Virus record (IMG/VR): IMGVR_UViG_2791354756_000002
Location: 288-64,287 of that record
Origin: a virus
Taxonomy: Duplodnaviria > Caudoviricetes
DNA: 64,000 nt
Reading direction: 5' to 3' (one strand)
The notes under the pieces are model-generated. The model was given only the letters and a program-made list of their open reading frames with translations. It ran no database searches and was not told the DNA's origin. Made by a program: the position numbers and the translations under genes. Positions 1,432 to 40,587 of the stretch are shown here, one piece after another (positions within the stretch are counted from its first letter, which is position 1; every line of letters starts with the position of its first letter).

Positions 1432-2655
1432 CTACTCCTTAAAGTACTTTTCCCACTTACGTTCAATATTTTTCGCTATATTGTACGCAAGCACACATGG
1501 TACGGCGTTACCAATAATTTTATAAGCGTCACTAGAAGATACAGACACATTCTTGCCTGTTTTCGCGAGTATGAATTGATACTCGTCCGGGAACGTTTGT
1601 ATTCTGGCGCACTCCCTCACAGTGAGCCTTCTCTCTGGAAGGCCAGCGGCGAGCTCGGCGTCGTGCTTGCCACCATGCTCCTTGGATAGCCTGCGGTACT
1701 CGATATTCCCGTGGTGCTCAGACCTGATTGTAGGCCCAACGGAATCAAGCTTTACTTCCGTTTGCCCCTGGCAATGAGCCCCCATGTATTTTGCCTTTGA
1801 GTATTTTTCCTGTGACTTATCAGTGGCTACCTCTGGCTCGACGAGACCCGTGAAGGCGTCAGAGCAAGTAACATAATCCAGTAAGCCGGGCCCGTGAGTC
1901 GGTAATGGGTAAGGATCATATTCCTCTGGAATATCCTTGCTCAACAGCGCCTCCATCGCTCCGGCGGTCAGGGCGTTCTTTCTGAAGCCAAAGAATATGA
2001 CCCTCTCTCTTGATTGGGGAACGCCGTAATCAGCGGCACGCAGAACTTTCGCTGGAACAACCAAATACCCACCATCGCCAGCCTCAGCGAAATCACGCTC
2101 AATAATTTCTTTCACATCCTCCAGGTTGGTAAGCCCCTTTACATTTTCAGCTATAAACAATTTAGGGCAAGTTATCGTAATAACTTCCCTCATCCAAATA
2201 TACAATTTCCCCCTACTCTCAGTGGATGGCTCACCGGCGTCAAGCGTTCCCCCAAGATGGCTTTTTTTAGATTTGAATCCTAATCTTTTACCAGCCACTG
2301 AGAAATCCTGACATGGAAAACCACCCGTTACGACATCAATACCTTCTGGAAACACAAAATCCCCAGTATTATGTTTTCTTACCAAGTCTACTATACTACC
2401 TAGATGATACACATCATCAGCGTTATTTATTCGACAGCTAAAAAAAGAAACCCATGCCGCTTTCGCGTCAGGTCTTATATCGTTAGCAAAGACAGTCCTA
2501 AATTTTGTTGGTGATAATGTTACCCAATCACCATTATTATTAGCCACCCAGTCTGCGTGCTCCTCAAGATTAATAGATTTTTTCAAGCACGAAAAACCGC
2601 CTTCAAAACCTATATCCATGCCACCACATCCAGAAAATAATGACAGTACTTTCAA
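1432..2655 (-). CDS. dcm: DNA cytosine-5 methyltransferase (resembles M.BepI, CGCG-type, from memory)
   Basis: Motifs LFSGCGG (I), GGFPCQDFS (IV), ENV (VI), QSRERV (VIII), YKIIGNAV (X); TRD segment PTIRSEHHGNIEYRRLS; TTG start. Confidence 0.95.
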   Translation of the reverse strand: MKVLSLFSGCGGMDIGFEGGFSCLKKSINLEEHADWVANNNGDWVTLSPTKFRTVFANDIRPDAKAAWVSFFSCRINNADDVYHLGSIVDLVRKHNTGDFVFPEGIDVVTGGFPCQDFSVAGKRLGFKSKKSHLGGTLDAGEPSTESRGKLYIWMREVITITCPKLFIAENVKGLTNLEDVKEIIERDFAEAGDGGYLVVPAKVLRAADYGVPQSRERVIFFGFRKNALTAGAMEALLSKDIPEEYDPYPLPTHGPGLLDYVTCSDAFTGLVEPEVATDKSQEKYSKAKYMGAHCQGQTEVKLDSVGPTIRSEHHGNIEYRRLSKEHGGKHDAELAAGLPERRLTVRECARIQTFPDEYQFILAKTGKNVSVSSSDAYKIIGNAVPCVLAYNIAKNIERKWEKYFKE

Positions 2656-2775
2656 CCTGTCCTCCCCTCATACCAAATATTAGCTTAAGCAAGTCTAGCG
2701 TCCACAAGTCCTACCTACAAAAACGCCAAATTCTACACCATTTCTACCCCACCTTCGGCTAAAAAACAAATGTTT

Positions 2776-2818
2776 GCGTAAGCGGCAGCAGGGCTACCAA
2801 CCCTGCTGCCGCTTACGC
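2776..2818 (-). terminator. Intrinsic terminator closing the micro-ORF array
   Basis: Perfect 18-bp stem GCGTAAGCGGCAGCAGGG/CCCTGCTGCCGCTTACGC with T-rich tails on both strands. Confidence 0.85.
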
Positions 2819-2841
2819 TTTCTACCCTACCGAGTTACCAA

Positions 2842-3309
2842 TCATAATAATAACCGCATCGTCTTGGGCCTCCTTAATGCCCAACTCAGCTGCGACGTAC
2901 CACTCCTACCCTAGTAACCCATGTCTTCTTGGCATCTTCCAACCTCCTCGCGAATAGTATAGTTTCCAGATTAACTTACTAGGTTAATAACGGTTGGCCG
3001 TACGGCATCCACTAACCTCCTTCGTTTGATTGTTTCTCACTCTTGTCCCCAAACCACGTCTATCCTAATAACTGCGCTTGGCGCATGTTATCCTTCCTCC
3101 GTCATTTGATTGTTTCCTCATCCTGCACCCTAGCCACCTTATCTTAATAACTGCGACTGGTGCCGCATAATATCTTCCCTCCTTTGGTTAAATTGTTTTC
3201 CTCTATCCCCTAGCCTAATAACCGCGACCTAAGCCGCATTGACATCACCTCCTATTTATTAAAGTATGCCTTCCAATTTCCTACAGCCTAATAATAGCCA
3301 TATAGGCAT
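2842..3309 (-). repeat. Tandem array of seven SD-led micro-ORFs (5-16 aa) at 70-82 bp period
   Basis: 3259-3309 MPIWLLLGCRKLEGIL; 3210-3239 MRLRSRLLG; 3139-3168 MRHQSQLLR; 3060-3086 MRQAQLLG; 2979-3008 MPYGQPLLT; 2906-2935 MPRRHGLLG; 2842-2859 MRLLL. Each is preceded by GGAGG. Confidence 0.8.
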
Positions 3310-3353
3310 CAGCATCACCTCCTTGCCATAATGCTATATTTCCCTTCTTACTA

Positions 3354-3488
3354 CCTTATAACACATTTGGTGGCATTTTGACGAAAATTTATAGATACAC
3401 CTACCGTTTATTTTTCATATCCTTATAACATAAATGACCCCCAAAAATTTAATAATAGATAAGTCTATTCTTTCATATCCTTATAACA
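3354..3488 (-). promoter_or_regulatory. Three tandem copies of the phage promoter motif TGTTATAAGG(ATATG)
   Basis: CCTTATAACA on + at 3354, 3421 and 3479, directly upstream of the micro-ORF array. Confidence 0.75.
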
Positions 3489-3510
3489 CAAAATCGCCAA
3501 ATTAACGAAA

Positions 3511-3557
3511 AAATAAAAGCCCCACAACGTTTATTAAACTTTGTGGGGCTTTTATTT
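3511..3557 (-). terminator. Intrinsic terminator
   Basis: 17-bp stem AAATAAAAGCCCCACAA/TTGTGGGGCTTTTATTT right after the 3564 stop. Confidence 0.8.
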
Positions 3558-3563
3558 TAATTT

Positions 3564-3929
3564 TTAGAAACTTATGCTATCAACATATTTATCTATACCA
3601 TCTCCTTTGTATTCATGATGTACAGTAAAATATAGCTTACATTCTGGTCTATTAGCAACACAAAAGTTCCACTTTGTTCCATCCTTCTCAATATATGTAA
3701 TATCTATATACTCCATACTATTATCTGGTGACCAGTAAGTATATACAGAATTGTGAAATGACCTCGGAGCACCCAATTTATCGAGTATCTCCTGTTTTGT
3801 AGTCTTCCCCTGAATAATAGTCATCTCTGCCACTTTAACAGGTTTAATTTCTACAACCTTAGCTTGTCTCTGAGGTAAGCAAGACACCTGAAGCATAAGG
3901 GTTGCAATAAGTGCCACAAATAATCTCAT
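3564..3929 (-). CDS. Putative lipoprotein, SmpA/BamE-like
   Basis: Start reassigned to ATG 3929 (SD AAAGGAGG). Signal-like MRLFVALIATLMLQVSC, then IIQGKTTKQEILDKLGAP (SmpA/OmlA-type motif). Confidence 0.55.
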   Translation of the reverse strand: MRLFVALIATLMLQVSCLPQRQAKVVEIKPVKVAEMTIIQGKTTKQEILDKLGAPRSFHNSVYTYWSPDNSMEYIDITYIEKDGTKWNFCVANRPECKLYFTVHHEYKGDGIDKYVDSISF

Positions 3930-3942
3930 AGTATTCCCTCCT

Positions 3943-4914
3943 TTATTCTTTCTCCATCCCAACCAGCATGGGATGGAGCCACTTCAGCACAAACGTCCTA
4001 TCCCCCTTCCTCGGACCAGTCCAGAATCCATGCCAATGTCCGCGCCTAACGTGTGCCCGTGGGCTTGCGTGCGTACCACCCGCGTACTCCGGCTTTTGGG
4101 CGACAGCATCGCGCAGGGCTTGGCCCAGGCTGCGTCCTACCTCCCAAACCGTCACCTTCTGCGCTGGAAACAAGGCCATACCGCCCTTTACCTTTTTGGG
4201 CTTGGGGCGAACAGGAGATTTGCCGGGCTGGCGAAGGTTGTCTATTTCCGGTTTGTCGGAGCAGAGATACAATACCAGAGCCACAAGGCTTTGCACATCC
4301 TTTTTGTAATGCTCATCGGGCGGAATCTCCGGCATACCCTTTTGTCTCATATACTCGACCGCAGGGGCATTCAGCTTTGCCAGCGTCTCGCTGACGCTCA
4401 AGCCTTCTTCCAAAGGTATGACGATCTGCACAGGCTCATACTCTTCCAAGAACAGCACGAAGCGCAGCTCCAACAACTGTGTGCCGTAATCAAAATCGTA
4501 GAAGACAAGCGTCCCCACAACGCCAGGCAGTGATTCGAAAAACCAGTCTGGCAACTGAATGTAGATAGCGTACTCCGGCAGCCTGACTACCACATCGATG
4601 GGTATGGGCTTATCGGTGTCTGTGTCCTTCAACGCCACCAGCAGGTTGTCGTCAAAGTGGTAAACGCCCTGGCTGTACCGCCAGGCTATCAGACCAGTAG
4701 TGACGCCAGCGAAGCGTACATCCTCATCTGTCGGAGGATCACCAATCTCTCCCATTTTTATGAGGCTCTTCGCCCATACGGAGATAGGTATAAACACGAT
4801 CTCCGGAGCGCTCCAATATGCCGGGCGCAAGGAGAGCACATGGTTCACATACTTGTTCAGTACCGGGACGCGCTTGCCCAGTTCGGCAAGCTTTCGCGAC
4901 GGGGGAAAATCCAT
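3943..4914 (-). CDS. AcrVA2/FinQ-family protein (candidate anti-CRISPR)
   Basis: 323 aa; AWRYSQGVYHFD, RLPEYAIYI, LYLCSDKPEI, WEVGRSLG and PRAHVRRGHWHGFWTG match in order the AcrVA2 motifs as I recall them (AWRNTLGIYQLD, NLPDWCVYV, LWLCVAEPDI, YQIGERLG, RPHIRRGHWHGYWQG). Confidence 0.75.
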   Translation of the reverse strand: MDFPPSRKLAELGKRVPVLNKYVNHVLSLRPAYWSAPEIVFIPISVWAKSLIKMGEIGDPPTDEDVRFAGVTTGLIAWRYSQGVYHFDDNLLVALKDTDTDKPIPIDVVVRLPEYAIYIQLPDWFFESLPGVVGTLVFYDFDYGTQLLELRFVLFLEEYEPVQIVIPLEEGLSVSETLAKLNAPAVEYMRQKGMPEIPPDEHYKKDVQSLVALVLYLCSDKPEIDNLRQPGKSPVRPKPKKVKGGMALFPAQKVTVWEVGRSLGQALRDAVAQKPEYAGGTHASPRAHVRRGHWHGFWTGPRKGDRTFVLKWLHPMLVGMEKE

Positions 4915-5025: not shown

Positions 5026-5675
5026 GTGCGGGGTGTTCCTGGCTGGTAACGTCCAGGCTCCATTGAAGCGAGCCAATGCAAGTACTGCTGTATTTCCTAG
5101 TTATTACATCCCGGGTACCGTCCCGGGCTCCATTGGCTTCCATAGGCTAAAAATAGCCGCACCCTGCACAGCATTTACCTATTGACACTCACCTTCCCCT
5201 CAATCTATAAAATCCTGTGCAGGGTGTTTCCTGGCGGGTAACCGCCAGGCTCCATTGAAGCTAGTACATTTTTTTGTAACTTGAACGGCTATACAGCTTT
5301 TCCCGGCAGCCATGCTGTCGGGCTCCATTGAAGCAATATTGTGATTGCTACAGGCTAAAAATAGCCGCGCCCTGCACGACCTTTGACTCCTACACCTCGT
5401 AGTCAGCGTCACACTAAAGGGTATAGCTTGCTTGCGAGCTATACCCTTTACTTACCAATATCAAATGCTGTATAGACATAGCTGTGCAGGGTGTTCCCGA
5501 TGGGTGACCATCGGGCCCCATTGAAGCAATATTGTTATTAATATAGGCTAAAAATAGCCGCACCCTGCACGACCTTTACTTATCACCGCCAGATAATGTA
5601 TAGTCGTAGTTGTGCAAGGTGCTCGCAATGAAGGTTGGTCGAGTCCTTCGTTGTTACATGGGCAACACCCTGCAC
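5026..5675 (+). CRISPR. Four small-RNA cassettes; three carry type I-G(I-U)-like CRISPR repeat mimics (orphan mini-arrays or solitary repeats)
   Basis: Cassettes 5026-5169, 5217-5377, 5484-5570 and 5612-5675, each closed by GTGCAGGGTG/CACCCTGCAC. Repeats of 36-37 nt ending CCATTGAAGC at 5033-5069, 5226-5261, about 5298-5334 and 5491-5527, plus a degenerate copy at about 5103-5139. Spacers about 33-37 nt. No cas genes. Confidence 0.75.
5182..5211 (+). promoter_or_regulatory. Sigma70-type promoter of cassette 2
   Basis: TTGACA-18-TATAAA ending 6 nt before the cassette; TTTACT-18-TATAG(A/T) precedes cassettes 3 and 4. Confidence 0.7.
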
Positions 5676-6172: not shown

Positions 6173-6219
6173 GGTGCGCCAGTAGCGTGGGTACTGTTTC
6201 CCCACACCACTGGCGCACC
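6173..6219. terminator. Hairpin; terminator or attenuator
   Basis: GGTGCGCCAGT/ACTGGCGCACC stem with T runs on both sides. Confidence 0.6.
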
Positions 6220-6243
6220 TTTTTCTAACTAAGCCATCCGGCA

Positions 6244-6273
6244 TCATAACCGTCTACGCCTTCTCTTGCGCAT
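6244..6273 (-). CDS. Arg-run micro-ORF MRKRRRRRL
   Basis: SD GGAGGTG, ATG at 6273, TGA at 6244; duplicated at 6380. Confidence 0.6.
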   Translation of the reverse strand: MRKRRRRRL

Positions 6274-6305
6274 AACGCACCTCCGAGAATTTAATAATTA
6301 CAAGA

Positions 6306-6380
6306 TTACAAGATCATTGCCTCAGCCAATATCGTTGGGCGGAGCCCTTGTCGTAACCGTCTGCGCCTTCTCTTGCGCAT
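6306..6380 (-). CDS. Arg-run micro-ORF MRKRRRRRLRQGLRPTILAEAMIL
   Basis: SD AAGGAGGTG; first nine codons nearly identical to 6244-6273; just downstream of the promoter motif at 6452. Confidence 0.6.
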   Translation of the reverse strand: MRKRRRRRLRQGLRPTILAEAMIL

Positions 6381-6451
6381 GGCACACCTCCTTGTAGTTT
6401 CACCGACGTACACTTCCTCCTGACAAAAACCTACGTATACGTCAGTTATTT

Positions 6452-6466
6452 CATATCCTTATAACA
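6452..6466 (-). promoter_or_regulatory. Phage promoter motif
   Basis: CATATCCTTATAACA on +. Confidence 0.7.
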
Positions 6467-39760: not shown

Positions 39761-40587
39761 CTATTGATGCGGTATCAAAGTAACAGGCTTACCGTCATTG
39801 TCAAAGACAGCAATATACTTGTCCTTGTCAATCTCCACTACCTTGTAGTTCATCACTTCGTGCGCCGGGAACACCGGACTCTCATCATCCTTCGGCGTAG
39901 CCCCACGAACGTGTACGTTTATGCGTACCTTGCAGAAGCACAGAATGATAAACACAATTATTAATAATACTGTTCCAACCATTTTAATTCCTCCTAAGAT
40001 CCAATATGTCTCCGTCACTATTATATGTTATGCGATATGTCTTTTTAGATAATGTTACAAATATATGTGGCATTCTAGAAATTAGCTTTCTGCGAACTTC
40101 TATTTTCTTCTCGATTTCTTCATCCTGACTTGATGTGAATAAAATGTAAGCAGCCGTAATACCGATGCCAATCAATACAGCAAATATAAAGTCAATAACC
40201 ACTGTCATATATCAACCTATTGATTTTATTGCAAAATGTATGGCAAGGTATAGTGCGCATATGCATGCAACTACATCAAGTATATCATACACTTTATTTA
40301 CGAAAATTTTCCATGAACTCTGTATCAAAAGGACAACAGCTGCTATTGTAGCAATTACATACATAGAAGTACCTCTATTATCCTGCCAACCTACCAGCCA
40401 TTTTAGCTGTAAACAGCAATGTGAACATCAACACGCAAAATATAGGTGCCAGCACAAGCCAGACGTTAAGGAGTTTTTCAGCATCACGTTCCGAGTGAAT
40501 AATATTGACGTACCCTATTGTCATCCCTAGCACCGTGATTACCAAAAACAGTATGCCTGCTACGATAAGTCCTATATCCCACCACAT
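39761..40587 (-). CDS. Cluster of small membrane-anchored hypothetical proteins (39761-40018, 39984-40208, 40378-40587)
   Basis: Each has 1-2 hydrophobic helices; AT-rich. Confidence 0.55.

Follow-up and report, generated by a model that had tools for sequence, protein, structure and literature searches.

A tandem array of UUA-UUA minigenes in a jumbo phage, proposed to act by trapping tRNA-Leu(UAA)

Introduction

What could a phage do with an RNA that carries seven ribosome-binding sites in a row, each followed by a reading frame of only a few codons? The question is raised by a locus on the minus strand of a 64,000-nucleotide stretch of viral DNA (the window), which makes up nearly all of a 64,287-base virus record with an estimated completeness of about 36%. 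An earlier note on the same DNA had described the locus as an operon of micropeptides under a triple promoter, and had offered a peptide library, a sensor or sink for Leu-UAA tRNA and ribosomes, or a CsrA-type RNA sponge as its possible role.

Here, we propose that the array is an autonomous, protein-less RNA of tandem rare-codon minigenes that traps tRNA-Leu(UAA), together with ribosomes, and does not make useful peptides. We give this reading a probability of roughly 60%. In the literature, we found no description of a phage tandem rare-codon minigene array or of viral tRNA-Leu(UAA) sequestration.

Results and discussion

Genomic setting

Genes for a fused multisubunit RNA polymerase beta/beta-prime-like protein, for NrdD, for helicases and for a primase mark the window as part of a jumbo phage. 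Among cultured phages, Salmonella phage Arash comes closest, with an RNA polymerase identity of only 34%, and a blastn search of the locus against GenBank phages gave no match. Near-identical variants of this DNA are present in chicken-gut metagenomes of several studies. No tRNA genes were found within the window.

The array is located in a variable island of the phage. Along the minus strand, an AcrVA2-like gene (PF26125) is followed by a small lipoprotein gene with a strong terminator, then by the array and finally by a low-GC restriction-modification operon. The terminator of the lipoprotein gene, a hairpin with 24-nt arms that are 96% complementary and a T run after it, is predicted to shield the array from upstream transcription. 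No ORF of at least 50 aa was found on either strand across 2656-3563, in agreement with the earlier remark that all reading frames of the locus fall below the cut-off of the ORF track. Searching positions 2300-4000 against Rfam at permissive thresholds gave terminator-type noise only. The features of the locus are:

3564-3929/3962, minus strand: lipoprotein gene, upstream of the array
3510-3558, minus strand: terminator hairpin of the lipoprotein gene
3471-3488, minus strand: promoter motif copy 1 (TGTTATAAGGATATGAAA), exact copy of an 18-mer
3413-3430, minus strand: promoter motif copy 2, exact copy of the 18-mer
3346-3363, minus strand: promoter motif copy 3, a variant that keeps TGTTATAAGG
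3259-3322, minus strand: unit 1, SD 3318-3322, AUG 3307-3309, CUA UUA UUA
3210-3252, minus strand: unit 2, perfect 10-nt SD, AUG 3237-3239, two CGG codons, UUA UUA GGC UAG
3139-3182, minus strand: unit 3, SD, AUG 3166-3168, UUA UUA AGA UAA
3060-3100, minus strand: unit 4, SD, AUG 3084-3086, 5-bp hairpin, UUA UUA GGA UAG
2979-3020, minus strand: unit 5, SD, AUG 3006-3008, UUA UUA ACC UAG
2906-2947, minus strand: unit 6, SD, AUG 2933-2935, UUA CUA GGG UAG
2842-2873, minus strand: unit 7, SD, then AUG CGG UUA UUA UUA UGA
2759-2818, minus strand: terminal stem-loop and U-rich tail; perfect 18-bp inverted repeat at 2776-2818, conserved tail at 2759-2775 ending in UAG

The restriction-modification operon 3' of the array encodes a C5 methylase, a PD-(D/E)XK-like enzyme and Vsr. 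It is found at 349-2655 of the window and 9571-10050 of L243, has a GC content of 41-46% and contains 11 UUA codons in two genes. It lies downstream of the array in this phage only, and because the relatives carry other genes at this position we take the operon to be a recent insertion.

On the plus strand, 1.7 kb away at 5026-5675, there are several small cassettes, in which a CRISPR-repeat-like hairpin that ends in CCATTGAAGC is combined with a short spacer-like part and a GGCTAAAAATAGCC hairpin. A link to CreA, the partner of the CreT toxins compared below, was considered and rejected: compared with the array and its promoters, the spacer-like parts give chance-level matches only (best 11/12 nt, E = 22). 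Two of the spacers contain GTTATTA, but only as a 7-8-mer, which was treated as chance. The idea that the array units are themselves CRISPR-repeat mimics was also rejected, as the length from GUUAUUA to GGAAAC is not constant (28-41 nt).

Anatomy of the array

The array consists of seven units with GGAGG at 3322, 3252, 3182, 3100, 3020, 2947 and 2873, and the distances between successive GGAGG sites are 70, 70, 82, 80, 73 and 74 nt. These positions and spacings confirm the seven Shine-Dalgarno-led units with a 70-82 bp period in the earlier note, and the translations of the seven mini-ORFs are exactly those listed there. All units follow one plan: GGAGG, 7-9 nt, AUG, one to five codons, a UUA-UUA pair and a stop. 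The pair begins 12, 15, 15, 12, 15, 15 and 3 nt from the AUG in units 1 to 7, in frame in every case, and the stop is found one codon past the pair in six of the seven units (UAG four times, UAA and UGA once each).

The composite pattern GGAGG-N7-9-ATG-N3-15-TTATTA has eight matches in the window against 0.03 in shuffled sequences. Seven of the eight sit on six array units; unit 6 is missed, as its pair is UUA CUA. The shorter pattern GGAGG-N7-9-ATG has 16 sites in the window, seven of them in the array. In units 1 and 2 the SD is complementary to the 16S 3' end over up to 10 nt, and there is an A-rich, conserved tract upstream.

Unit 1 has lost its usual stop by a 1-nt insertion, and its ORF extends to 3259, giving 16 aa. 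Unit 7 has only four sense codons after the start, compared with 7-15 in the other units, and these are exclusively the rarest (UUA) and the third-rarest (CGG) codons of the phage. In most units the rare pair is separated from the stop by zero or one codon.

The earlier note had also placed a short hairpin right after the AUG of most units. This part stands for units 2-4, where the hairpin is convincing (5-6 bp); units 1, 5 and 6 form only a weak one, and unit 7 has none. Judged by inspection, the stems are conserved in relatives, with no two-sided compensatory change and one variant that breaks a pair.

UUA is avoided in phage genes and concentrated in the array

Codon usage was calculated from 27 core phage ORFs with 12,699 codons. 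The rarest sense codon in these genes is UUA, with 0.94 per 1000, followed by CUA and then CGG, and UUA supplies 1% of the leucines of the phage. In the core genes, TTA as a trinucleotide is found 12 times in the codon frame, versus 185 and 75 times in the two remaining frames. AUA (36% of Ile) and GUA (22% of Val) are ordinary codons. Since TTA is depleted in frame only, and AUA and GUA are common, the avoidance of UUA is translational and not compositional.

Among the 58 sense codons of the mini-ORFs there are 14 UUA, 2 CUA and 4 CGG, where 0.055 UUA are expected, and UUA is used at 14 of the 19 leucine positions. The P-value of the UUA enrichment is about 4e-30, which is overstated as the units are paralogous and not independent. 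The direction is clear all the same: the conserved Leu-Leu is written in the codon that the phage avoids elsewhere.

Some core genes carry one to three UUA codons. In a larger ORF set, 17 of the 29 UUA codons are found in four low-GC, evidently acquired genes. The acquired genes beside the array are UUA-rich: six UUA codons are found in the restriction enzyme, five in the methylase, two in the lipoprotein and four in a RuvC-like gene.

Two other sites with UUA or TTA runs were observed in the window. At 39761-39982 on the minus strand, UUA UUA is found at codons 6-7 of an ORF of 73 aa that has a strong SD and encodes an N-terminal transmembrane segment. This is one of very few in-frame tandem rare-Leu pairs in real phage genes, and translation of the ORF could be gated by the supply of tRNA-Leu(UAA) and thus by the array. 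At 57737-57795 on the plus strand, two microsatellite runs of (TTA)n were seen; the stretch around them is AT-rich and poor in genes, and no SD or start is associated with them.

What is conserved among homologous arrays

Relatives were identified through the 90% cluster of the lipoprotein and its member contigs, which yielded three further versions of the array, from other chicken-gut samples. In L248/L249 and in L265 it has seven units and the same position as here. In L244/L263 (a 156.7-kb contig) it has 11 units and four interspersed promoter motifs, and is found 2.8 kb further from the lipoprotein gene. The chicken-gut contigs aligned to the window add DNA variants in which units are replaced, one unit is added or single positions are changed.

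The changes among orthologs, counted per aligned position, are unevenly distributed, in arrays that all come from one narrow lineage of close relatives with paralogous units, i.e. the effective sample is small. The SD has 1 change in 40 positions, the start codon 1 in 24 (AUG to GUG, which remains a start) and the rare-codon pair 2 in 48, one of them UUA/CUA. The codons ahead of the pair have about 12 changes in 102 positions, mainly non-synonymous. The spacer between SD and start has 12 in 65, with its length held at 7-9 nt, and the flanks differ at 40-49% of positions.

A nearby in-frame stop is always kept in the orthologs, but its type and position shift. The UAA of unit 3 is UGA in three independent chicken-gut runs and in L248, and an earlier UGA is found in L244, where new UGA or UAG stops occur immediately 3' of the pair. 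Also in L244, the ortholog of unit 2 keeps both pair and stop, that of unit 4 has a GUG start and a stop one codon earlier, and that of unit 6 reads UUA UUA UAG. Unit 5 is intact in L265 and decayed in L248, where a one-base insertion destroys the UUA reading. Unit 7 is identical in all four arrays.

The SD, start, rare pair and stop are thus kept while the amino acids drift, which argues for selection on initiation, on the rare-codon pair and on termination, and not on the peptide. From their sequences the mini-ORFs look translated, with the codon and not the peptide under constraint. Conservation of frames and stops in homologous arrays had been named in the earlier note as the test between translated units and an RNA-only role, and the frames passed it. 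Together, the frame-specific rarity of UUA, the retention of pair, start and stop and the drift of the amino acids favour the sink for Leu-UAA tRNA and ribosomes among the roles suggested there.

The same comparison bears on two other readings. The units could encode micropeptides that end in Leu-Leu-X and have a function of their own (as decoys, degron mimics or signals), in line with the peptide library of the earlier note and with frames that are conserved, look translated and contain Leu-Leu in all units. However, apart from Leu-Leu, the residues, lengths (5-16 aa) and C-termini vary among units and orthologs, mostly by non-synonymous changes, and there is no signal sequence. Leu-Leu itself is encoded almost only by the codon that gives 1% of the phage leucines; as it is nearly always reached through the rarest codon, selection acts on the codon. 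We therefore consider useful peptides very improbable.

To the second reading, a protein sponge rich in GGA (CsrB/RsmZ type) or some other decoy that acts as RNA only, we give scarcely any credence. The array does contain many GGA motifs, and the SDs of units 1 and 7 are in predicted hairpin loops, but these are only two of the seven SD sites. There is no Rfam family match, and the only Csr-type match is a partial one of 16 bits on the terminator. The start spacing, the conserved reading frames, the change from AUG to GUG and the moving stops have no role in an RNA-only decoy, so that a CsrA-type sponge leaves the conserved ORF features unexplained.

Outside the narrow lineage, the searches gave no further arrays. 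In two relatives with 53-56% RNA polymerase identity, found in MAGs, there was no clustered UUA minigene pattern, and the 146-kb contig of the one with 56% identity lacks minigene clusters built on any codon. In IMG/VR, the relatives identified through the flanking proteins are distant (35-40% identity) and have no arrays, and no relatives were found through the restriction enzyme or the RNA polymerase. Loose motif scans of IMG/VR gave single chance matches, none of which was an array on re-scan. The last unit with its SD, used as an exact pattern, has no match in IMG/VR or the JGI metagenomes.

Promoters and the terminal hairpin

The three promoter motifs that had been noted upstream of the array are two exact copies and one variant of the 18-mer. 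This 18-mer has seven copies in the window, on the minus strand only, against 0.06 expected, and the copies precede transcription units, e.g. that of a helicase gene. We conclude from its recurrence on one strand and ahead of transcription units that it represents a promoter class of the phage, and that it sets the direction of transcription. The spacing is unlike that of a standard sigma-70 -35/-10 pair, and the phage's own RNA polymerase may therefore read it. A search of IMG/VR with the 18-mer gave no match.

Sites of the class are found on the minus strand at 3346-3488, 6449, 15838, 24464, 29871 and 56690, with a consensus of about 40 nt, AAATTTTTGACCCCC-TTTTT-TGTTATAAGGATATG. The variant in copy 3 recurs, with the same upstream context, within the L244 array. 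At 11040-11310 of L244, promoter motifs are found between the first array units, i.e. parts of that array can be transcribed from internal starts.

A single hairpin closes the whole array, rather than one for each unit, and it is kept in all versions. The 18-bp terminator proposed in the earlier note is indeed a perfect inverted repeat. When three arrays are compared, 18 of 18 pairs are kept, five of them by two-sided compensatory change, and none is broken. The stem-loop is probably a terminator, a 3' stabiliser or both.

A second minigene cassette is found at 6173-6466 on the minus strand, behind an exact copy of the promoter motif. It contains two SD-led ORFs starting M-R-K-R-R-R-R-R-L. The stop of the first has been lost (UUA CGA), in this phage as well as in L244. 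The second ends in CGG UUA UGA, like unit 7 of the array, with a long hairpin and the same U-rich tail after it; the cassette thus ends in the same stem-plus-tail style as the array. It probably belongs to the same functional class, aimed at Arg and Leu tRNAs.

The array is not a leader of the genes next to it

The genes 3' of the hairpin differ between the arrays: here there is a restriction-modification operon on the same strand, whereas L248 has a convergent gene of 204 aa and L244 a gene of 87 aa. This matters for the possibility that the RNA is a sensor or timer, in which translation of the minigenes reports the status of tRNA-Leu(UAA) or of the ribosomes and controls a target in cis or in trans, in the style of a leader peptide. 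Short ORFs with runs of a single codon are a hallmark of attenuators, and unit 7, with its three UUA codons, ends 23 nt ahead of the strong hairpin. However, 7-11 units are unnecessary for sensing, the downstream genes are not conserved and in one case convergent, and by inspection we saw no sequence able to compete with either arm of the terminator. The covariation keeps the hairpin as a plain stem. A leader-peptide attenuator would have an antiterminator overlapping the leader ORF, of which inspection showed no sign, and a conserved downstream operon, which is absent; we regard a sensor as rather improbable. With its own promoters, a covarying hairpin, differing downstream genes and no competing pairing seen, the array is a self-contained RNA gene and not a leader.

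Proposed mechanism

In the reading that we prefer, the trapping of tRNA-Leu(UAA), the phage promoters would drive an RNA of roughly 0.6 kb, which the terminal hairpin would end and stabilise. Every unit would recruit a ribosome by a very strong SD at optimal spacing. The ribosome would read one to five arbitrary codons and then meet two consecutive UUA codons right before the stop. The cognate tRNA-Leu(UAA) is presumably scarce in the infected cell, judging from the codon usage of the phage. The ribosome would thus pause with one tRNA-Leu(UAA) bound as a short peptidyl-tRNA, awaiting a second copy, and peptidyl-tRNAs of this kind are prone to drop off. In this way the array may lock up tRNA-Leu(UAA), along with some ribosomes and peptidyl-tRNA hydrolase capacity. 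Messages that contain UUA would be starved, and the nearly UUA-free core genes of the phage would be spared. With several promoters, and with 7-11 units on each RNA, the array would have a greater capacity. The phage would benefit by host shut-off or by the selective silencing of AT-rich, UUA-rich genes.

Several points count against the proposal. The acquired, UUA-rich genes adjoin the array, so the phage's own acquired genes would also be hit, and a few of the core genes contain UUA as well. The arrays come from one narrow lineage, and the more distant relative lacks them. Further, the precedents CreT and bar consist of one unit each, and tandem arrays are not known to act in this way.

The array could instead be a general sponge for ribosomes or initiation factors, in which idealised sites soak up 30S subunits or ribosomes and the UUA pair only prolongs occupancy, with no tRNA as target. 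The very strong SDs (up to 10 nt in units 1 and 2), the A-rich conserved upstream tract and the multiple promoters would all suit such a sponge. It does not, however, require the rarest codon, nor its doubling and strict conservation (2/48 changes), and the frame-specific avoidance of UUA by the phage fits an effect at the level of the tRNA. In addition, rare tRNAs are far scarcer than ribosomes, and the tRNA would therefore run out first. We consider this alternative unlikely.

If tRNA-Leu(UAA) is trapped, the purpose may be a codon-based filter of translation: the UUA-UUA minigenes would remove free tRNA-Leu(UAA), silence UUA-rich genes and spare the UUA-free genes of the phage. The targets in that reading are typically AT-rich, horizontally acquired genes, e.g. 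host defence islands or rival mobile elements. The array is found in the anti-defence island of the phage, beside the AcrVA2-like gene and the CRISPR-repeat-mimic RNAs. We put the filter forward tentatively, as a possibility. If true, it would be a broad-spectrum, RNA-only form of counter-defence (or exclusion) and the first natural case of a phage attacking with a CreT-like toxin in tandem form. An array of this size, conserved and with several promoters, in a phage whose own genes nearly lack the codon would mean that viruses use rare-tRNA sequestration deliberately and at scale, and that the choice of codon (UUA) can mark self and non-self when messages are translated in the infected cell. 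The locus lends itself to clean tests and gives a recipe for finding similar unannotated elements: an SD and start, the rarest codon of the genome twice, and a stop, in tandem.

Comparison with known systems

The earlier note stated that no named feature class explains the locus. This is wrong, as both CreT-type mini-ORF RNAs and the lambda bar minigenes share its design.

A CreT toxin depends on a strong SD, on AUG or GUG as the start codon, on a mini-ORF in which two minor codons follow each other, and on a stable stem-loop; its effect comes from sequestration of the cognate rare tRNA and not from the peptide (PMC8501985). Synonymous replacement of the minor codons abolishes toxicity, deletion of the preceding codons does not, and over-expression of the cognate tRNA relieves it; the known types include AGA-AGA in Haloarcula hispanica and a six-codon mini-ORF with AUA-AUA in Halobacterium hubeiense (PMC8501985).

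The array resembles CreT in its strong initiation signal with AUG or GUG, its mini-ORFs of a few codons with a minor-codon pair and an early stop, and its stable downstream stem-loop. In all seven units GGAGG precedes the AUG by 7-9 nt, and the 18-bp hairpin provides the stem-loop. Two consecutive minor codons are also present, with rarity measured in the phage core genes. The differences lie in setting and scale. CreT is one unit beside creA in a CRISPR-cas locus and is repressed by Cascade, whereas the array has 7-11 tandem units in a jumbo phage, uses phage promoters and the Leu codon UUA, shares one hairpin among all units and has no detectable CreA partner. A CreTA member would have an adjacent creA, a CRISPR-repeat-like guide partly complementary to the toxin promoter, within a CRISPR-cas locus, and this locus is on a phage. 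The array would thus share the mode of action of CreT without being a CreTA member.

The second precedent is provided by lambda bar and by engineered minigenes of 2-8 codons, which are SD-led very short ORFs like the units here; bar is, in addition, phage-borne (PMC2490762). When such minigenes are translated, a rare tRNA is sequestered in the form of peptidyl-tRNA, most effectively if rare codons stand in tandem before the stop (PMC2490762). Minigenes of 3-8 codons with AGA-AGA just before the stop accumulate peptidyl-tRNA and inhibit protein synthesis, which Pth counteracts (PMC2490762). The bar-type order of SD, AUG, a few codons read by a rare tRNA and a stop is found in the array. However, bar has one sense codon (AUA), occurs in single copies and is known mainly by its toxicity in Pth-defective hosts, whereas the array has ORFs of 5-16 aa in a dedicated multi-promoter array that is conserved among relatives.

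A parallel at the level of the tRNA is bldA, the tRNA-Leu-UAA of Streptomyces. UUA is very rare there, and a single, dispensable tRNA gates a subset of genes through its supply (PMC2000904, PMC10732093). The organisms are unrelated, and the control would be exerted from opposite sides: with bldA the cell regulates the tRNA gene, whereas here a virus would lower the free tRNA by means of a decoy RNA.
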